Shown in pieces: positions 13,306 to 55,584 of a stretch of 64,000 nucleotides of DNA. The stretch lies in NCBI RefSeq assembly GCF_963921235.1, contig NC_086097.1:23376001-23440000 (forward strand), read 5' to 3'. The position numbers and the translations under genes were made by a program. Position 1 is the first letter of the stretch; each line of letters starts with the position of its first letter. The notes below the pieces were generated by a model. That model was not told where the DNA came from and did not search any database. It saw only the letters and a list, made by a program, of their open reading frames with translations. The stretch is from Mobula hypostoma (lineage: Eukaryota).

Positions 13306-13525
13306 TTTACTGGTTTCTTTCTACCACGTTGAGTGTATTAAGCATTTTCTGACCTGCCTTCAAGTTCCCAGCATCTGCGGGTTATTTTTGTTTTATTCCT
13401 CTTCGGAACACTTCCTTTTCAAGTCAACAGCATCGTGACATGGATATATATTCTCATTCCTTTATGATCACTGGACAAAATATTATGATTCCCAACCTAA
13501 CAGCAGTAGTGGGGGATTCCTTGTG

Positions 13526-14863
13526 ATTTGGAAAGCGGTGAAATCATCGGACAAAGTCAGCATAGATTTGTGAAAGGAAAATCATGTCTGACGAATCTCA
13601 TAGAATTTTTTGAGGATGTAACTAGTAGAGTGGATAGGGGAGAACCAGTGGATGTGGTATATTTGGATTTTCAAAAGGCTTTTGACAAGGTCCCACACAG
13701 GAGATTAGTGTGCAAACTTAAAGCACACGGTATTGGGGGTAAGGTATTGGTGTGGGTGGAGAATTGGTTAGCAGACAGGAAGCAAAGAGTGGGAATAAAC
13801 GGGACCTTTTCAGAATGGCAGGCGGTGACTAGTGGGGTACCGCAAGGCTCAGTGCTGGGACCCCAGTTGTTTACAATATATATTAATGACTTGGATGAGG
13901 GAATTAAATGCAGCATCTCCAAGTTTGCGGATGACACGAAGCTGGGTGGCAGTGTTAGCAGTGAGGAGGATGCTAAGAGGATGCAGGGTGACTTGGATAG
14001 GTTGGGTGAGTGGGCAAACTCATGGCAGATGCAATTTAATGTGGATAAATGTGAAGTTATCCACTTTGGTGGCAAAAATAGGAAAACAGATTATTATCTG
14101 AATGGTGGCCGATTAGGAAAAGGGGAGGTGCAACGAGACCTGGGTGTCATTATACACCAGTCATTGAAAGTGGGCATGCAGGTACAGCAGGCGGTGAAAA
14201 AGGCGAACGGTATGCTGGCATTTATAGCGAGAGGATTCGAGTACAGGAGCAGGGAGGTACTACTGCAGTTGTACAAGGCCTTGGTGAGACCACACCTGGA
14301 GTATTGTGTGCAGTTTTGGTCCCCTAATCTGAGGAAAGACATCTTTGCCATAGAGGGAGTACAAAGAAGGTTCACCAGATTGATTCCTGGGATGGCAGGT
14401 CTTTCATATGAAGAAAGACTGGATGAACTGGGCTTGTACTCGTTGGAATTTAGAAGATTGAGGGGGGATCTGATTGAAACGTATAAGATCCTAAAAGGAT
14501 TGGACAGGCTAGATGCGGGAAGATTGTTCCCGATGTTGGGAAGGTCTAGAACGAGGGGTCACAGTTTGAGGATAGAGGGGAAGCCTTTTAGGACCGAGGT
14601 TAGGAAAAACTTCTTCACACAGAGAGTGGTGAATCTGTGGAATTCTCTGCCACAGCAAACTGTTGAGGCCAGTTCATTAGCTATGTTTAAAAGGAAGTTA
14701 GATATGGCCCTTGTGGCTACAGGGGTCAGGGGGTATGGAGGGAGGGCTGGGTTCTGAGTTGGATGATCAGCCATGATCATAATAAATGGCGGTGCAGGCT
14801 CGAAGGGCCGAATGGCCTACTCCTGCACCTATTTTCTATGTTTCTATGTTTCTATGTTTCTAT
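13526..14863 (+). mobile_element. Young 5'-truncated CR1 LINE
   Basis: Uninterrupted RT ORF, 3' UTR with GGCCGAATGGCC hairpin, and (TTTCTATG)n tail at about 14833-14863. Confidence 0.95.
13528..14757 (+). CDS. CR1 ORF2 reverse transcriptase, C-terminal 409 aa (5'-truncated, no true start)
   Basis: VDVVYLDFQKAFDKVPH, SGVPQGSVLGP, SKFADDTKL, RPHLEYCVQFWSP, RLRGDLIETYKI and FFTQRVVNLWN are canonical CR1 motifs. Confidence 0.93.
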   Translation: MESGEIIGQSQHRFVKGKSCLTNLIEFFEDVTSRVDRGEPVDVVYLDFQKAFDKVPHRRLVCKLKAHGIGGKVLVWVENWLADRKQRVGINGTFSEWQAVTSGVPQGSVLGPQLFTIYINDLDEGIKCSISKFADDTKLGGSVSSEEDAKRMQGDLDRLGEWANSWQMQFNVDKCEVIHFGGKNRKTDYYLNGGRLGKGEVQRDLGVIIHQSLKVGMQVQQAVKKANGMLAFIARGFEYRSREVLLQLYKALVRPHLEYCVQFWSPNLRKDIFAIEGVQRRFTRLIPGMAGLSYEERLDELGLYSLEFRRLRGDLIETYKILKGLDRLDAGRLFPMLGRSRTRGHSLRIEGKPFRTEVRKNFFTQRVVNLWNSLPQQTVEASSLAMFKRKLDMALVATGVRGYGGRAGF

Positions 14864-14994
14864 AACTCTAACACTGCAGCAGTTCAGGAAATCAAATTGC
14901 CATCATCTTCACAATCAATGCGAGATGCTAACATCAACAGCAATGTCCACATTAGGGGAATGCACAGTCGAAGGAATTTTGATTTGGAGTCCTA

Positions 14995-16410: not shown

Positions 16411-17295
16411 TAGTCATACTTTATTGATCCTGGGGGAAATTGGTTTTCGTTACAGTTGCACCATAAATAATAAGTAGTAATAAAACCATAAATAGTTAAA
16501 TAGTAATATGTAAATTATGCCAATAAATTATGAAATAAGTCCAGGACCATCCTGGTTCAGGCTCAGGATGTCTGACCCTCCGAGGGAGGAGTTGTAAAGT
16601 TTGATGGCCACAGGCAGGAATGACTTCCTATTACGCTCCGTGCTGCATCTCGGTGGAATGAGTCTCTGGCTGAATGTACTCCTGTGCCCACCCAGTACAT
16701 TATGTAGTGGATGGGAGACATTGTCCAAGATGGCAAGCAACTTAGACAGCATCCTCTTTTCAGACACCACCGTGAGAGAGTCCAGTTCCATCCCCACAAC
16801 ATCACTGGCCTTACGAATGAGTTTGTTGATTCTATTGGTGTCTGCTACCCTCAGCTTGCTGCCCCAGCACACAACAGCAAACATGATAGCACTGGCCACC
16901 ACAGACTCATAGAACATCCTCAGCATCGTCCAGCAGATGTTAAAGGACCTCAGTCTCCTCAGGCAATAGAGACGGTTCTGACCCTTCTTGTAGACAGCCT
17001 CCATGTTCTTTGACCAGTCCAGTTTATTGTCAATTCGTATCCCCAGGTATTTGTAATCCTCCACCATGTCCACACTGACCCCCTGGATGGAAACAGGGGT
17101 CACCGGTACCTTAGCTCTCCTCAGGTCTACCACCAGCTCCTTAGTCTTTTTCACATTAAGCTGCAGATAATTCTGCTCATACCATGTGACAAAGTTTCCT
17201 ACTGTAGCCCTGCACTCAGCCTCATCTCCCTTGCTGATGCATCCAACTATGGCAGAGTCATCCGAAAACTTCTGAAGATGACAAGATTCTGATGA
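16411..17295 (-). mobile_element. Young 5'-truncated Rex1/Babar LINE, (ATGACT)n-tail family, copy 1; 7-bp TSD CAAGTCA
   Basis: Nearly identical by eye to 53241-54669. TSD at 16404-16410 and 17296-17302. Confidence 0.9.
16528..17291 (-). CDS. Rex1/Babar RT C-terminal fragment (open frame)
   Basis: ORF track 16528-17337 has LQKFSDDSAIVG..LNVKKTKELVVD..YKYLG. The first about 15 aa come from flanking DNA. Confidence 0.85.
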
Positions 17296-17344
17296 CAAGT
17301 CAATGCACTCTCTTGCATTTTCCACACAGTTCTGCAAATATTTG

Positions 17345-17715
17345 ACAATGAATCAAAATCAGGCTTATTATCACTGACATATGTTATGCTATTTGTTGTT
17401 TTTATGGTTGTAGTACAGTGCAAGGTATTAAAAAAAAAGTTGCAATGAAAATTAAATATGTCAAAAGAGGAATAGTGAGGTAGTGTTCATAGACTGTTCA
17501 TGAAATCTGATGGCAGAGGAGGTGAAGCTGTTCCTAAATTGTTGAGTGTGTGTCTTCAGGCTCCTGTACCTCTTCCCTGAAAGTTAATGAGACGAGGGCA
17601 TGCCTTGGGTTGTAAGGTTCCTAAATAATGCTGCCTTTTGAAAATGTCCTCAGTGGTAAGATTATGCCCATGAAGGAACTGCTTGAGTTTACAGCTCTAT
17701 GCAACCTCTTTTGGA
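17345..17715 (-). mobile_element. Degraded Rex1/Babar-type 3' fragment
   Basis: Reverse tail AATCAGGCTTATTATCACTGACATATG plus AAGCTGTTCC..TTCAGGCTCCTGTACCTC. Confidence 0.6.
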
Positions 17716-31860: not shown

Positions 31861-32729
31861 GTTACCTGTGTTTGTTATGTAGGAAGCTGGGATTGCGGTC
31901 TTGGAAGGGTTGACTTACTTTTGATGGGTAAGATTTAATCTCATAATTGTCTCATCCAGCACAGTGTTGCATGTTTCCTTGAGGAACATATCCAACACCA
32001 GACTTTCAAATGCCAAAGATAAAATAAATTTGAGTTCATCCTGATACATAAGACCATAAGACACAGGAGCAGTATTAAGCCATTTGGCCCACTGAATTTG
32101 CTCTGCCATCCATCATGACTGATTTACTGTCCCTCTCATCTCCATTCTCTTGCATTCTCCTGATAATAGTTTGCATCCTTACCGTTCATGAACCTATCAA
32201 CCTCTACTTTAAGTATACCCACAGGCATCTGTGACAATGGATTCCATAGATTCACTACTCTCTGGCTAAGAAATTTTGCAACTCTGTTCCAATGGGACAT
32301 CCTCCACTATAGGAAACATCCTGTCCACGTCCACTCAATTGTGTTTCATACTTTAAATCTTATTTATATATAAGGTGTCACTGAGGGGTGCTGAGGAGGA
32401 TCTCAACTGTGAAAGTATGATTTATGTTTTAGGAACAGCTTCTTAAAGATTTAAGTTTAGCTTTATTTGTCATGTGTATGTTGAAACTTACAGTGCAATG
32501 TGTCATTTACATCAAATCCAATCAGTGAGGATGTTCTGGGCAGCCCACAAGTGTTGCCACACTTCTGGCACCAACATAGCATGCCCACAATGCACTATCT
32601 CTAACCGTCTGTCTTTGGAATGTGGGAGGAAACCAGAGCATCCGGAGGAAACACACACACTCACAGAGAGAATGCACAAACTCGATACAGGCGGCCACAG
32701 GAATTGAATGCTGTTCAATGTCTTAGTCA

Positions 32730-33759
32730 CAGTAGGTGATTCGGTGACAGAAGTTCATGGAATAAATCATTTTCAATCATTTATGGACAAATTGTGCTCT
32801 GTTTACAGTAAATCACCTCTAAATCAAAAGGAACTGTCTGAATGTGCCTCTCAACTAGAACAACAAATTTGCAAAATAGGCCATGTTCTGGGCACCAGGT
32901 GGGTAGCTAGCTCGTTTCAAACAGTTTCAGCAGTGTGGCAAAATGATGAAGCACTGGGTTTTCATTTTGAAAAAGCAACGAAGGATGAAACAAGATCTGG
33001 AGTGACAGAAAAATCTATGAAGGTCTGTTGAAGAGAATCTCTTCAGAACAGTTTCCATTGGACTTGGCTCTAATGTATGACACGTTGCATGAACTTGGTT
33101 TACTGTCAGAATGTTTACAGAAACACACTACTACGATTGTTTATGCAGACAAACTGATCCAATGGAGCATAAGGTCACTGCATGGACTGAAAGAGCAACC
33201 TGGTACAAAAACTCTAGAAGCTCAAGAGGCAGCTGAAAAGGGGAAGTTTGGAGAAATTACCTTAACAAGCAAAACAAAATTGTTTCCATTAATTATCTAC
33301 AGTTTCTTACTAGTCTTATAAACAATTTGCAGCACCGTATGTTCACAGCAACATCCTTGAAAGGTTCTCAAACTTTTAAACCTCAAGGTATGTATAAATC
33401 CCTGCTAAATGAAATGTGTGTCCTTGATAATGATAACCGGCCTGCTGAAATACCACCTAATTATGGAGAAGCTGCAATATCATCTCTCTGTAAGAGGTTT
33501 AAGCTTTCTTCTTCCTCTGTAATAAATGCCTTCAGAGATTATGTGGAGGATTCTGGATGCGGCATCCCCCAAGATTTACGCCCATTACTGAGCTGTTCAC
33601 AAGTTATTCCTATTAGTACTGCTGAGTGTGAGAGAGGATTCAGTCACATGAACTTGATAATAACAACAGGCTCAAGGATTCGCCTAGATCATGTATTATT
33701 GCTTATGTTTGTTAAACTACACGGACCTTCTCTAGTTCAATGGAATGCTGAGCCATATG
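32730..33759 (+). pseudogene. Frameshifted hAT transposase fragment resembling KIAA1586/ZNF862-type proteins
   Basis: Three consecutive ORFs: VGDSVTEV..FMDKL..YSKSPLNQKEL..KIGHVLGTRWVASS; DLALMYDTLHELGLLSE.LQ; VIPISTAECERGFSHMNLI..LMFVKLHGP (hATC-like). No TIRs seen. Confidence 0.8.
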
Positions 33760-33955
33760 AGAGTGGTTGGTGCATGGAATGCACTACCTGAGTCAGTGGT
33801 GGAGGCAGATACACTAGTGAAATTTAAGAGACTACTAAACAGTTATATGGAGGAATTTAAGGTGGGGGGGGTATATGGGAGGCAGGGTTTAAAGGTCGGC
33901 ACAACTTTGTGGGCCGAGCGGCCTGTACTGTGCTGTACTGTTCTATGTTCTAAAA
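33760..33955 (+). mobile_element. CR1 3' end fused to the hAT fragment
   Basis: RVVGAWNALPESVVEADTLVKFKRLL, then the 3' UTR and TTCTATGTTCTA tail. Confidence 0.85.
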
Positions 33956-35371
33956 TGTTCATTGAAAGCTGCCACCGTGAAGTGGAGCGCTAAGCACAAT
34001 GCTATTGGGCCTTCTCCTCTGCATCAGATGTTTGAATGCTTCATGACCCCTTCAACATAACTAATTGTTCATCTTTTGAACTTTTCATTCACTTTTGTAA
34101 TTTATAGTAATTTTTTATGTCTTAAACTGCCGTGCTGCCAGAAAACAACAAATTTCATGGTGCTAATAAAACTAGATTTTGATCTGAGACTGTACTTGAA
34201 CAATCAATTCCTTGGCCATCATGAGACTGAGCGTGCTATATTTGCAATATTTAGTTCCTACTGTACTTTGAGGGCAGGGGTTGGTGGTGAGGGAATTAGT
34301 TTTAAGTCATTGTGAACATTTATTGCCTTTTTTACCTTCTAAAATCCATGTTAATTACCTATAGATAACTCCCTGTGCCATATAGGATATAGAAATTGTG
34401 CATTATTGCTAAGGTTCTATTGTGTCTCAAATTTTTGAATATTCACTTTGGTATCAAAAGTAGAGGTAGCATCTCCTAACATTTCGCCCCAGTTTTATCC
34501 AAGGTTTTGCTGTCAGTGTTGAAGCCATGGTACTTGCTTCTGAACATGAGGAAAGTTGCCCAAGATGATGTAACAATCTCTACAGACCTGCCTTTTGTAA
34601 AACACATAAAATTCTGCAGGAACTCAGCCGGTCAGGCAGCGTCTATGGAGGGGAATAAACGGTCAACTTTTTGGGCTGAGGCCCTTCAGTGTGTCTGGAA
34701 GGAAAAGGGGCAGAAGCTAGTAAAAGAAGGGGGGAGGAGTGGAAGGAGTACAAGCTGGCACGTGATAGGTGAAACTTACATCCTTCACGTATGTGAGGAG
34801 TAAAAAATCTTTACGTTACGTCTCCATCTGAATGTGCAAATCATAGTGATTTGTAATAAAAAGTATGTACAAGATATAGAACAGAGCAGTCAATCTAGCT
34901 TAGAGACACAATTGTATCAGTATAAATTATTAAGTCCTATGGCCTGGTGGAAGAAGCTGTCCTGGAGCCTGGTAGAATTTCTCCCTTAAATTACATGTGT
35001 GCAAAGATTATGATTGCTATCTTTACTTATAGTACATAGTCTGTAAATATTAGTATTTCATCATATTCCACACACACATTCACTCACTCACAGCAGGTCA
35101 GGCGGCATCTATGGAAGAGAGTAAGAATCAACATTTTGGGCTGACACCCTTCATTGGAATGTAACTGTAGGCTTGCAATGTCAGCAATGTTACTTATTTT
35201 TATTGATCATAGAGTTTATATTGTTATAGTCGACTAGTTCACTGGACGTGCCAGTACTCTAACGTTAATTTTTACTACATAGCAACAGTGAAGTTGGAAG
35301 ATATTTTCTAACCCAAGATGTGAGCATACTCTGAAATAAATATATTGGTAGGAAGAATAAGTAAATCCATT

Positions 35372-36277
35372 AGAACTACACAGTGGTGGGGCTCATCAGC
35401 AAAAATGATGAAACAATGTACAAGGAGGAGGTCAAACACCTAGAGAGCTGGTGCAGGGATAACAACTTGATGCTTAATGTCACCAAAACCAAGGAGGTGA
35501 TCGTGGATTTCAGACGGTCTCAGCCTGAGCACACGCCCCTCAGCATCAGCGGCTCCACAGTGGAGAGAGTGGAAAACATCAAGTTCCTTGGGGTGCAGAT
35601 CTCGGACAATCTCACCTGGTCCAGGAACACCACTGGGATTGTGAAACGGGCCCAGCAGAGATTGCACTTTCTGAGGAAACTTAAACAAGCATTATTCCCC
35701 ACTAACATCTTAACTACATTCTACAGAGGCGTGGTTGAGAGTGTGCTGACCTTTTGCAACACAACCTGGTACTCCAGCTGCAGTGCTGTCGACAAAAAAG
35801 CCTTGCAGAGGGTGGTTAGGGGAGCAGAGAAGGTTATTGGGGTCTCCCTACCTTCTGTCCAAGACCTCTTTCAGAGTCGATGCCTCCAGAAGACACAGTA
35901 CATCATTAAAGACCCCTCACACCCTCTCCATGAACTGTTTGTTCTTCTGCCATCAGGCAAACATTACAGAAGCATCAAAACTAAAACCACAAGGCTACTA
36001 AACAGCTTCCTCCCACAGGCAGTCAGACTGCTAAATAGCTGCTCTACCTGACTCTGCTTTGGACACTTTTAACTTGCACTGGACACTTATAACTTGATTT
36101 TAACTGAAATGTGGCTGTTGTGTTTTACTATTTATTGTTATGTTTATTATTTAGTGTTGTGTTTGTTATGTTACGATTGCACTGCTCCTGAGATACGCTG
36201 TCTCATTCTACCCTGCAGAGCTGATGTATGGTTAGAATGACAATAACGTTTTTTGAATCTCTTTGAATCTCTTGACT
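35372..36277 (+). mobile_element. Young 5'-truncated Rex1/Babar LINE with 8-bp TSD AATCCATT
   Basis: TSD at 35364-35371 and 36278-36285; (TTGAATCTC)n tail; open RT C-terminus. Confidence 0.85.
35383..36051 (+). CDS. Rex1/Babar RT C-terminal 222 aa (truncated)
   Basis: WCRDNNLMLNVTKTKEVIVDFRR, IKFLGVQISDNLTW, IIKDPSHPLHELFVLLPSG, NSFLPQAVRLLN. Confidence 0.88.
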   Translation: MVGLISKNDETMYKEEVKHLESWCRDNNLMLNVTKTKEVIVDFRRSQPEHTPLSISGSTVERVENIKFLGVQISDNLTWSRNTTGIVKRAQQRLHFLRKLKQALFPTNILTTFYRGVVESVLTFCNTTWYSSCSAVDKKALQRVVRGAEKVIGVSLPSVQDLFQSRCLQKTQYIIKDPSHPLHELFVLLPSGKHYRSIKTKTTRLLNSFLPQAVRLLNSCST

Positions 36278-53240: not shown

Positions 53241-54669
53241 TAGTCATAGTCATACTTTATCAATCCCGGGGGAAATTGGTTTTTGTTATGGTTGCACCAT
53301 AATAATAAATAGTAATAGAACCATAAATAGTTAAATAGTAGTATGTACTTTATGCCAGTAAATTATGAAATAAGTCCAGGACCAGCCTATTGGCTCAGGG
53401 AGTCTGACCCTCCAAGGAAGGAGTTGTAAAGTTTGATGACCACAGGCAGGAATGACTTCCTACGACGCTCTGTGTTGCATCTCGGTGGAATGAGTCTCTG
53501 GCTGAATGTACTCCTGTGCCCACCCAGTACATTATGTAGAGGATGGGAAACATTGACCAAGATGGTATGCAACTTAGACAGCATCCTCTTTTCAGACACC
53601 ACGGTGAGAGAGTCCAGTTCCATCCCCACAACATCACTGGCCTTATGAATGAGTTTGTTAATTCTGTTGGTGTCTGCTACCCTCAGCCTGCAGCCCCAGC
53701 ACACAACAGCAAACATGATAGCACTGGCCACCACAGACTCGTAGAACATCCTCAGTATCGTCCGGCAGACGTTAAAGGACCTCAGTCTCCTCGGGAAATA
53801 TAGATGGCGCTGACCCTTCTTGTAGACAGACTTAGTGTTCCTTGACCAGTTCAGTTTATTGTCAATTTGTATCCCCAGGTATTTGTAATCCTCCACCATG
53901 TCCACACTGACCCCCTGGATGGAAACAGGGGTCACCGGTACCTTAGCTCTCCTCAGGTCTACCACCAGCTCCTTAGTCTTTTTCACATTAAGCTGCAGAT
54001 AACTCTGCTCACACCATGTGACAAAGTTTCCTACCGTAGCCCTGTACTCAGCCTCATCTCCCTTGCTGATGCATCCAACTATGGCAGAGTCATCGGAAAA
54101 CTTCTGAAGATGACAAGACTCTGTGCAGTAGTTGAAGTCCGAGGTGTAAATGGTGAAGAGAAAGGGAGACAAGACAGTCCCCTGTGGAGCCCCAGTGCTA
54201 CTAATCACTCTGTCGGACACACAGTGTTGCAAGCACACGTACTGTGGTCTGCCAGTCAGGTAGTCAAGAATCCATGATACCAGGGAAGCATCCACCTGCA
54301 TCGCTATCAGCTTCTCCCCCAGCAGAGCCGGGCGGATGGTGTTGAACGCACTGGAGAAGTCAAGAAACATGACCCTCACAGTGCTTGCTGGCTTGTTCAG
54401 GTGGGCGTAGACATGGTTCAGCAGGTAGACGATGGCATCCTCAACTCCTAGTCGGGGCTGGTAGGCGAACTGGAGGGGATCCAAGTGTGGCCTGATTATA
54501 GGCCGGAGCAGCTCCATAACAAGTCTCTCCAGGGTCTTCATGATGTGGGAGGTCAATGCCACCGGTCTGTAGTCACTGAGGCCACTGGGGCGCGGCGTCT
54601 TCGGCACAGGGACAAGGCAGGATGTCTTCCACAGTACAGGAACCCTCCGGAGCCTCAGGCTCAGGTTGA
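53241..54669 (-). mobile_element. Young 5'-truncated Rex1/Babar LINE, (ATGACT)n-tail family, copy 2; TSD ATTACCA
   Basis: TSD at 53234-53240 and 54670-54676; open RT ORF. Confidence 0.93.
53387..54607 (-). CDS. Rex1/Babar reverse transcriptase, 406 aa (5'-truncated)
   Basis: DYRPVALTSHIMKTLERL, LDPLQFAYQ, FLDFSSAFNTI, GAPQGTVLSPFLF, KFSDDS, YKYLG. Confidence 0.92.
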   Translation of the reverse strand: MPKTPRPSGLSDYRPVALTSHIMKTLERLVMELLRPIIRPHLDPLQFAYQPRLGVEDAIVYLLNHVYAHLNKPASTVRVMFLDFSSAFNTIRPALLGEKLIAMQVDASLVSWILDYLTGRPQYVCLQHCVSDRVISSTGAPQGTVLSPFLFTIYTSDFNYCTESCHLQKFSDDSAIVGCISKGDEAEYRATVGNFVTWCEQSYLQLNVKKTKELVVDLRRAKVPVTPVSIQGVSVDMVEDYKYLGIQIDNKLNWSRNTKSVYKKGQRHLYFPRRLRSFNVCRTILRMFYESVVASAIMFAVVCWGCRLRVADTNRINKLIHKASDVVGMELDSLTVVSEKRMLSKLHTILVNVSHPLHNVLGGHRSTFSQRLIPPRCNTERRRKSFLPVVIKLYNSFLGGSDSLSQ

Positions 54670-55584
54670 ATTACCAAAGTTATGCTGCCAAGTTAAATAT
54701 TTTCATTGGATGGAGGTGTATCAGAATGTCAAGACAGCTTGAAATCCACCAACCACTTGACCTGTGGTCAGTGTGTAATTAATAGCCTGTGTAAAATTTA
54801 CATCACATGAGAGTCGAGCTGTGATCCATCCAGCAGACGGCATATGTAGAAATAACTGCTACCAATTTGCTTATAACAAGTGCCTTGAACATGATAAAGC
54901 CTAGCTCCCAAAGATTTTCACAGATGATTTGTCTTATGGTCTTATGGTCTTATGATACTTGACACCAAGCTAACAAGAAATACAAAAGTCAGAAGTCTTG
55001 ATCAAAGCGCTAGGTTTCAAAAGCAACTTCAAGGACAAGCTTGTTTTAACTTAGTTGCATTAAATTTATTCCTTTCTACAGCTGTTGCCTGGCCTACTGA
55101 GTTCCTCCAGCATTTTGTGAGTGTTGCGTACTAAATGATTACCATGTGATCAAACCTCTCCTTGGATGTGTCTTTCATTTGGCTGGACCCAGTGCTGAGA
55201 GGGTGTACGTTAGACATGGTTAATTAGCTAACAAATTTGTCAAGTATGTTTTCTTTCCTTAAGAACACCAATTGAAGAGACAAGACCTAGGGAGAGTGTT
55301 TTCAGTTGTGGGGAAGAGTTGAACTTAGCTCTATCTACACAAGCCACTAAGGAATCTAATTGGAAGTTCAGGGAAAAAATTTTAACTTTTGTGAACACTG
55401 TATATAAGTTTATGGGGAAGTTGAGTAGTTCATGAGGAAGAGGGGAATGCAGGGTGACACTGACAGATTCAGAGGATAAAGATGGAGTGAAACTTGAGAA
55501 ACAGAGTGGGATGATTGATCTAAATGCCCCATTTGTTCTGTATGTCTGTTCTGTAAGGAAGAGTTTAACATTTGTATTAGCAAT

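Follow-up and report, generated by a model that had tools for sequence, protein, structure and literature searches.

A KIAA1586-like hAT transposase fragment fused to a CR1 3' end and inserted in a SINE of Mobula hypostoma: a probable single CR1-primed event

Structure of the locus

The window, that is, the whole stretch of 64,000 nucleotides of Mobula hypostoma contig NC_086097.1 analysed here, carries an insert of 1,235 nt (32721-33955) which interrupts a minus-strand SINE within its tRNA head. The insert is made up of 9 nt without assignment, a 1,029-nt fragment of a hAT transposase and 194 nt from the 3' end of a CR1, including its hairpin and tail (Table 1). The hAT and CR1 parts have the same sense and are fused directly at a junction observed in the window only, where the G at 33759 is compatible with both parts (on the hAT side as judged from the protein), giving a 1-nt microhomology. 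As for terminal inverted repeats (TIRs), the two ends of the insert agree at only 6 of 15 positions, and the 25 longest of 144 inverted pairs include no end-anchored arms. The original prediction of a TIR-less, sense-oriented hAT coding fragment joined to a CR1 3' end with its tail, about 1.2 kb in all, is borne out as regards structure; its boundaries needed correction, positions 33953-33955 being three extra A and 32721-32729 nine nucleotides that do not belong to hAT.

The host SINE is a member of the tRNA-headed SINE that is abundant in the window, as seen by blastn and with a profile, and GGAATTGAA at 32700-32708 is presumably the reverse B-box-like motif of its tRNA head. A search of Rfam gave no match at E <= 1. 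The window yielded no identified host gene; the long frames listed there resemble, by eye, pieces of retrotransposons.

Table 1. Features at and around the insert (positions in the window)
Feature	Position	Strand	Evidence
Host SINE body and B-box side of tRNA head	32448..32711	-	blastn to other window copies; profile
Left target-site duplication TGTTCAATG	32712..32720	+	sequence; empty-site joint from 32720 in run X13
9 nt outside hAT, CR1-like or untemplated 5' extra nucleotides	32721..32729	+	7/9 CR1 match, post hoc
hAT (KIAA1586-like) transposase coding fragment, about codons 363-707 of about 742	32730..33758	+	tblastn, Pfam, family contigs
Change cluster inside hAT part	33669..33701	+	scan statistic
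CR1 3' end: last ~45 ORF2 codons, 3' UTR hairpin (~33911-33924), TTCTATG-type tail	33759..33952	+	
Three extra A, CR1 tail to right target-site duplication	33953..33955	+	gapless in organisms A, B
Right target-site duplication TGTTCATTG, one change from left copy	33956..33964	+	sequence; contigs
SINE tRNA head remainder, A-box side	33965..34012	-	profile; joined to 32720 in X13 contig

The target site

Two 9-mers, TGTTCAATG (32712-32720) and TGTTCATTG (33956-33964), flank the insert, and 22 of the 63,991 positions in the window match the left one in at least 8 of its 9 letters. In organism G (run X13), one contig of 758 nt and depth 19.1 connects 32720 to 33999, with 33 intervening letters of which 30 are identical, when compared by eye, to window 33965-33997; the insert is absent and a single 9-mer is present. 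This empty site shows that the 9-bp target-site duplication (TSD) is real, and both the reading of the 8/9 match as a TSD and the expectation of an orthologous empty site with one 9-mer have been validated. The left copy is taken as the ancestral form; its first 5 nt prolong the CR1 tail repeat, a prefix match reached at about 1% of window positions. The filled right junction was recovered from organism A (0 differences in 193 nt) and organism B (4 differences in 195 nt), the three A being bridged without gaps in both.

The flanks also fit together as one SINE. A profile was built from 9 other window copies, and the joined left and right flanks, aligned over profile positions 2-149, scored 83.1 bits, compared with 72.5 bits with the insert left in and 73.9 with the flank reversed; none of 200 shuffled and none of 200 random flanks reached 83.1 bits. 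An inverted remainder is ruled out by the same comparison (73.9 vs 83.1 bits). Pairwise tests, weak when taken alone, gave p <= 0.01 in 2 of 10 copies in the same orientation and in 1 of 10 in the opposite one. The score of the rejoined flanks, above all controls, upholds the claim of a minus-strand SINE cut within its tRNA head, and together with the empty site it supports the entry of hAT fragment and CR1 tail as one TSD-flanked unit.

The hAT part and its parent family

The fragment was located by tblastn at 32726-33770 in three frames, and the alignment of a family contig to it begins at 32730. It is most similar to KIAA1586-like proteins from Mobula and Latimeria and to unnamed proteins; the name 'E3 SUMO-protein ligase' attached to KIAA1586-like relatives is an automatic database label and not a tested function. 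The N-terminal half, with two acidic motifs and an HCLNH motif, and the last ~35 codons are missing. One base has been lost near 32998 and another near 33272 (two frameshifts), and one codon near 33669. Compared with the KIAA1586-like hAT family of Mobula and Latimeria, the window copy differs in being a fragment, with neither TIRs nor the catalytic N-terminal half, and it is very probably a dead, promoterless fragment unable to transpose. The last hAT frame matches Pfam Dimer_Tnp_hAT with E 0.0034 and 17.6 bits, under the cut-off of 21.4; the intact relative P0032 scores 22.1 bits and is the one of five relatives that passes. The ORF with which the fragment is colinear appears to lack introns, and no poly(A) is present at the hAT/CR1 junction.

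Over aligned codons, amino-acid identity is 91% to P0032, 82-87% to Mobula copies and 73% to Latimeria, where the relatives form a 7-member cluster. The window copy and two Mobula copies are each 7-10% from one intact sequence and 13-18% from each other, and many distinct hAT contigs, 4-11% from the window, occur in all four runs. Going by these star-like distances, the many divergent contigs and the Latimeria cluster, the parent is a multi-copy, neutrally decayed family. The original prediction had offered a domesticated KIAA1586-like mRNA as template, which is unsupported because the relatives form a multi-copy family with star-like distances and no single-copy conserved parent. A domesticated KIAA1586-type gene as parent is ruled out by the multi-copy, divergent relatives. 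Transposition of the insert as a hAT element is ruled out too, by the lack of TIRs and by a TSD of 9 bp rather than the 8 bp made by hAT transposons (accessible text of PMC11008031).

The family locus, and with it any TIRs of the parent, was found in none of 7 candidates from viral contigs and none of 37 from prokaryote genomes, and the main text of the hAT-6_XT paper mentions neither sharks, nor the coelacanth, nor KIAA. No run listed as containing the sequence is recorded as RNA; the presumed-RNA run X15 holds other hAT copies and pieces of flank, and has no bearing on expression.

A cluster of changes stands out at 33669-33701, with 6 amino-acid changes in 12 codons and the lost codon (scan p about 0.02 at 12 codons, 0.03 at 8 and 0.26 at 20). 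Non-synonymous divergence from P0032 is 4.1%, or 2.6% once the cluster and in-codon CpG changes are left out; half of the flank divergence between organisms A and G is also 2.6% (18/350 pairwise; 95% interval 3.1-8.0%). The hAT part and the insertion site thus appear to be of about similar age, with wide limits and one reference protein, so that the template would have been near the family consensus when copied.

The CR1 part and the 5' nucleotides

Loose ends of CR1 family contigs terminate at 33759 and at 33952. The frame at 33760-33894 matches the C-terminus of the reverse transcriptase (RT) frame at 13510-14757 with 45% identity (20/44, E 6e-10), and the hairpin is common to the copy at 14785-14850 (z -1.67; 11 of 200 shuffles equally good). 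The clade name CR1 is given to the 3' part provisionally, on the basis of characteristic motifs.

The nucleotides at 32721-32729 match the CR1 family letters preceding 33759 at 7/9, a likeness found post hoc and overlooked in the original prediction. Such a match is reached by 328 of ~128,000 9-mers (0.26%), and the in-register hAT codons reach at most 5/9. The sequence at this end hints at an out-and-back switch of template, from CR1 to hAT and back.

Discussion

The whole insert very likely goes back to one CR1-primed insertion event, as we infer from ends that consist of a 5'-truncated ORF and a CR1 tail, without TIR. For the origin of the chimera itself, the chances are about even that it was formed when the template changed from CR1 RNA to a hAT transcript (template switch). 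The CR1 endonuclease would have nicked the SINE head, and the 3' end of the target would have annealed to the CR1 tail repeat, as the 5-nt match between TSD and tail suggests. The RT would then have copied 194 nt of the CR1 3' end, switched at the 1-nt microhomology to a transcript of the then-young hAT family and, keeping the sense of CR1, copied about 1,029 nt of the transposase before the product was joined to the target, leaving the 9-bp TSD. A single switch with untemplated 5' nucleotides is one version, put forward tentatively; that the RT switched out after 194 nt, copied 1 kb of hAT mRNA and returned to the same CR1 base for another 9 nt is rather unlikely. Of the original proposal, CR1 priming followed by copying, the entry as one unit is supported, the domesticated template is not, and the switch keeps an even chance.

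Among the contigs listed from four runs (32 of 106,483 pieces, 15 of 467 joints), none bridges the left or the hAT/CR1 junction, and at many hAT positions, including the dense stretch 32945-33056, the window letter is carried by no X1 contig. Since contigs lose rare variants, junctions and letters unseen in this way neither confirm nor refute a switch. Two observations count against it: the microhomology is just 1 nt, and the hAT part ends in TATG, which is one phase of the CR1 tail and is shared by 5% of hAT positions. This end fits better with an earlier CR1 insertion into hAT DNA.

Such a nested source, a route equally serious and absent from the original prediction, is possible although doubtful. 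A short CR1 would have entered a genomic hAT copy ~35 codons before its stop, and the read-through hAT-CR1 RNA, 5'-truncated in the ORF, would have been retrotransposed in trans, with one insertion event here and no template switch. On this reading TATG would represent a TSD of 4 bp, all of it in agreement with the tail repeat (chance expectation 5%). In X1 the summed contig depth, which is not copy number, is ~5,000 for hAT and ~1,000,000 for the CR1 end against ~7 for the unique flank, and with both families so abundant, sense-nested copies would be expected. The SINEU-2B subfamily, with its Mariner-N4-like 5' extension and a master copy interpreted as nested in a DNA transposon, offers a precedent (PMC4494074), and the change cluster at 33669-33701 could be older than the move. 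Nevertheless, the hAT part is not measurably older than the site, the CR1 likeness of 32721-32729 is left unexplained, and no chimeric C-terminus, a weak point, appears among the 11 matches (of 16 candidates) to the junction-spanning frame, the top ones being ordinary hAT relatives with none scoring higher.

A composite non-autonomous family of hAT body and CR1 tail, with several copies and here one 5'-truncated member, is improbable. Hairpin and tail are thought sufficient for a stringent LINE (PMC3747384), and a consensus-like master would still be compatible with the data; against this, the window's hAT letters are missing from all X1 contigs at many sites, including 33682 and 33697 near the junction, and no junction-spanning piece occurs among the contigs listed. 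In metagenome contigs the 17-nt junction pattern gave 21 matches, all by chance, with no alignment longer than 25 nt.

Equally improbable are two steps, in which a ~203-nt CR1 insertion with its 9-bp TSD was later broken 9 nt from its 5' end and patched with hAT cDNA or DNA, as a class 2 templated insertion. Because 32721-32729 continues CR1 at 7/9, the hAT piece may sit inside CR1 without a TSD of its own; class 2 patches lack a TSD and show microhomology (PMC5110952), and organisms A and B confirm the right junction only. However, this would take two rare events within ~200 nt after the split from organism G, the second at most 9 nt from the end of the first with no CR1 base lost, and the 32729-33759 joint is absent among the joints listed, 15 of 467 and 12 of 71.

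Capture of hAT genomic DNA by end joining at the CR1 5' junction, or an assembly artefact, is least probable: in zebrafish, extra nucleotides at the 5' end occur in about 40% of ZfL2-2 copies, many of them ascribed to template jumps (PMC2666801, PMC4245944), but these known extras comprise several nucleotides, against 1 kb here; the inner junctions are seen in the window alone, yet the left boundary coincides with the TSD that the empty site delimits, a coincidence not to be expected of an artefact.

The comparisons that follow refer to the accessible text of the papers cited. The stringency of CR1 for its own 3' end had been seen as conflicting with a chimera. This is no paradox, because the stringent LINEs L2 and RTE make 5'-truncated chimeras with TSDs of 1-9 bp (PMC4476161). 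In platypus, 5'-truncated U6 precedes a short L2, with TSDs of 1-9 bp; U6-Mon1 chimeras are also reported there, U6-L2 and U6-RTE in Anolis, and one unresolved U6-CR1 candidate in turkey (PMC4476161). The window insert shares with the U6 chimeras the order of its parts, a 5'-truncated foreign sequence and then a short 3' fragment from a stringent LINE, both of one sense, and also the short TSD; it differs in carrying a 1-kb DNA-transposon ORF instead of an snRNA, in its CR1 partner and in its empty orthologous site. Template switching has moreover been proposed for a CR1-mobilised SINE (PMC5729268), and double switches for MGL of Magnaporthe (PMC2104539). In the MINE (WEIRD-MGL) and tripartite chimeras of that fungus, too, a single TSD encloses ~1 kb derived from a different RNA together with a 3' fragment of a LINE. 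Switch sites there follow GCC(A/U), and a candidate GCCA lies 4-7 nt before the window junction on the hAT side. In MINE, unlike here, a non-coding RNA of full length forms the 5' part and is present in 31 copies with different junctions, and the accessible text reports neither a DNA transposon nor a return to the first template (PMC2104539).

SINEU-2B_Crp with its Mariner-N4-like extension is alike in that DNA-transposon sequence was retrotransposed as a 5' extension, and unlike in that the extension is short, non-coding and weakly similar, and belongs to a Tx1-driven SINE master, interpreted as coming from a nested source (PMC4494074). Class 1 templated insertions resemble the insert in being LINE-mediated with a TSD of at least 5 bp; class 2 ones, with microhomology and no TSD of their own, suit the two-step reading (PMC5110952). 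The window insert departs from templated insertions in having neither poly(A) nor polyadenylation signal, and in a 3' end formed by the hairpin and tail of CR1. The composite insertions of coelacanth have a different structure, since there each of the nested elements has its own TSD. Full-text searches in mainly open-access literature turned up no description of a transposase-CR1 chimera in the titles, abstract openings or consulted passages of the papers listed.

The pairing of hAT with CR1 is unusual, and the copying accident behind it is most likely of a known kind. The insert is a single dead copy, and its value is that of a record of mechanism and, since organisms A and B have the filled site and G the empty one, of a presence/absence marker, rather than that of a functional system. 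CR1 has been cited as a cause of the scarcity of retrocopies in CR1-dominated genomes (accessible text of PMC5470649); the insert suggests that CR1 is still able to move protein-coding sequence if this is attached to CR1's own 3' end. If the out-and-back switch is true, CR1 would itself be able to carry protein-coding sequence, and a stringent LINE would build CR1-cargo-CR1 units resembling the mRNA capture of LTR type. The insert, whichever way it was made, would also be a case of class II sequence spread by class I means, a process that can account for transposase fragments devoid of TIRs and inflate automatic counts of 'KIAA1586-like' genes.

Insertion site and its age

The insert (1,235 nt between the two 9-mers) lies in a repeat-rich window of 41% GC, and its termini match at 6 of 15 inverted positions, in line with the lack of terminal inverted repeats (TIRs) stated in the original prediction.

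Layout of the insert and its host SINE (window positions)
Feature	Position	Strand	Role
SINE body	left of 32712	-	host element
Left 9-mer TGTTCAATG	32712-32720	+	left TSD
9 nt	32721-32729	+	between left TSD and hAT part
hAT coding fragment	32730-33758	+	1029 nt
CR1 3' end	33759-33952	+	194 nt
AAA	33953-33955	+	between CR1 tail and right TSD
Right 9-mer TGTTCATTG	33956-33964	+	right TSD
SINE head remainder	right of 33964	-	host element

Matches of at least 8/9 to the left 9-mer occur at 22 of 63,991 window positions. Pairwise SINE comparisons of the flanks are weak on their own; when joined and scored with a profile from nine other SINE copies, the flanks reach 83.1 bits (73.9 with one reversed), a value attained by 0 of 400 control flanks, so that they do form one SINE. 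Contigs of 4 of 23 sequencing runs were compared with the window. The orthologous empty site was found in organism G, where a 758-nt contig of run X13 links 32720 to 33999 through 33 letters, 30 of them identical to 33965-33997. G therefore carries a single 9-mer and lacks the insert, which is decisive evidence for insertion with target-site duplication, and the TSD-flanked chimera is real and better supported than before.

The bridge from the tail to the right flank was present in organism A (run X1; 193 nt, no differences) and organism B (run X5; 195 nt, four differences), the X1 flank pieces showing no differences, so that A is possibly the window's own source and, in that case, not independent. 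With the right junction filled in A and B and empty in G, the insertion is dated between the A-G split (flank divergence 5.1%, 18/350) and the A-B split (about 1.8%, 11 in about 620), unless the insert was an old polymorphism. Unique pieces of the flank (32250-32399 and 34109-34350) also occur, without differences, in run X15, guessed to be RNA; they may derive from an intronic transcript or from DNA, and the window yielded no identified host gene.

No filled-allele bridge over 32720 or 33759 was found among the 32 pieces (out of 106,483) and the 15 joints (out of 467) listed, and the window letter at many hAT positions, including the stretch 32945-33056 where changes are dense, occurs in no X1 contig. 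Since contigs lose rare variants, and even the family letter is found in no more than about 7-19 X1 contigs at most of the hAT sites listed, this simplification is the likely cause of the missing letters; from X1 to X4, only 0.50-0.60 of the sampled words were present. A filled allele lacking the hAT part would still be compatible with the contig data.

The transposase fragment and its parent family

The closest proteins of the fragment are named from Mobula, which suggests that the window comes from a ray-like cartilaginous fish. It is spread over three reading frames, family contigs having one extra base near 32998 and another near 33272, and it corresponds roughly to residues 362-711 in a relative of 742 residues, the final few lying beyond the junction. 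In the alignment it starts directly after the HCLNH motif and ends about 35 residues before the C-terminus; both upstream acidic motifs, which we take to be catalytic, are absent. With Pfam Dimer_Tnp_hAT the window scores 17.6 bits, below the cut-off of 21.4, and the intact relative P0032 scores 22.1 bits; of five relatives, one lies above the cut-off.

Either a transposase or a domesticated KIAA1586-like mRNA had been proposed as parent. The window copy differs from P0032 in 30 of 342 codons (8.8%), while two Mobula copies lie 9.9% and 7.2% from P0032 and 17.8% and 13.3% from the window copy, a star pattern indicating independently decayed copies. Moreover, the hAT part is covered by many distinct contigs, 4-11% from the window, in all four runs compared (their summed depth, which is not a copy number, far exceeds that of the unique flank), and Latimeria holds a seven-member cluster. 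The parent was therefore a multi-copy transposon family rather than a domesticated gene. No TIRs of this family were seen in the locus search, covering viral contigs and prokaryote genomes.

At 33669-33701, 60-90 nt upstream of the hAT/CR1 junction, dense, mostly non-CpG changes and a lost codon were observed (scan p about 0.02), one possible cause being error-prone synthesis during integration. An R-to-W change at 33163 is common to the window, an M. hypostoma copy and, judged from an alternative frame, an M. birostris copy; the site may mark a subfamily or be a hot spot for CpG change. In the set comprising P0032 and the relatives P0008 and P0011, identity of the ray-type protein over the aligned part is 88% with an ENA protein and 79% with Latimeria copies, two of the latter differing by 1.4%; such identity over these distances may reflect horizontal transfer.

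The CR1 part

The 3' part is presumably of the CR1 clade, as named from motifs. CR1 family contigs part from the window before 33759 (112 in X1, 60 in X5) and also behind 33952. Its frame at 33760-33894 resembles the end of the reverse transcriptase (RT) frame at 13510-14757 (20/44 identical, E 6e-10), and a 5-bp hairpin ahead of the tail is predicted in both (z -1.67, modest alone). A young 5'-truncated CR1 occupies 13510-14870; its RT frame is open over 415 codons, and it has a hairpin and a tail of three units. A second LINE family has near-identical RT frames at 53387-54670 (minus strand, 427 codons) and 16528-17352 (minus strand, 274 codons), to which that at 35374-36051 (plus strand) is related. 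The 9-nt direct repeat ATGGAATGC (33740-33748 and 33776-33784), on both sides of the hAT/CR1 junction, is probably due to chance; its hAT-side copy relies on a change private to the window copy (P to A at 33747).

Origin of the chimera

The absence of TIRs, a TSD of 9 bp, where that of hAT elements has 8 bp (PMC11008031), the CR1 tail, and a TSD whose first 5 nt continue the tail repeat after three intervening A (as about 1% of positions do) make it very probable that CR1-primed reverse transcription would have produced the entire unit, hAT and CR1 together.

Within this process, a single template switch from CR1 RNA to a hAT transcript is put forward tentatively. Non-synonymous divergence from P0032 is 4.1%, or 2.6% without the six-codon cluster and in-codon CpG-type changes, and the yardstick, per-lineage divergence since the A-G split, is about 2.6%. 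Within wide limits, the hAT divergence is close to that of the site, pointing to a near-consensus template, in keeping with a switch to a transcript that was then young. Only slightly less probable is that a hAT copy already holding a CR1 gave a read-through RNA that was then retrotransposed; after such an earlier CR1 insertion one would expect a hAT part that ends in TATG, as it does here, this motif being in one phase of the tail repeat and having a chance frequency of 5%.

The nucleotides 32721-32729 match the CR1 letters directly before 33759 at 7 of 9 positions, as 0.26% of window 9-mers do, against at most 5/9 for the in-register hAT codons; two mismatches in nine have a probability of 0.06 at 5% divergence, and this post hoc match carries a weight of about 10- to 20-fold. 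The order that it suggests is CR1(9)-hAT(1029)-CR1(194), reached either by an out-and-back switch (CR1 to hAT to CR1), itself improbable, or by a CR1 fragment inserted first and patched later with hAT sequence, for which the chances are slight. Equally slight are those of a composite hAT-CR1 family with several copies. DNA capture or an artefact is the least probable origin.

The insert behaves as a LINE-tail chimeric retrocopy, with the structure tested for in that kind, and is a candidate for its template-switch type. It resembles U6-L2 and U6-RTE chimeras in joining foreign sequence to a stringent LINE 3' end, and the sections available of PMC4476161 describe U6-L2 chimeras in platypus (1-9 bp TSDs), L2 and RTE chimeras in lizard and one unresolved CR1 candidate in turkey. 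Excerpts of other papers propose template switching for a CR1-mobilised SINE of pittas (PMC5729268) and, in the case of MGL, switches both single and double (PMC2104539), and report a 5' extension of DNA-transposon sequence in SINEU-2B (PMC4494074), frequent extra nucleotides at L2-clade 5' junctions (PMC2666801; PMC4245944) and CR1 as a limit on retrocopy formation (PMC5470649). No description of a transposase-CR1 chimera was found in the literature searched, which was of limited coverage. The process is already known and the copy is a single, dead one; what is new is the partner of CR1, a coding fragment of class II origin.
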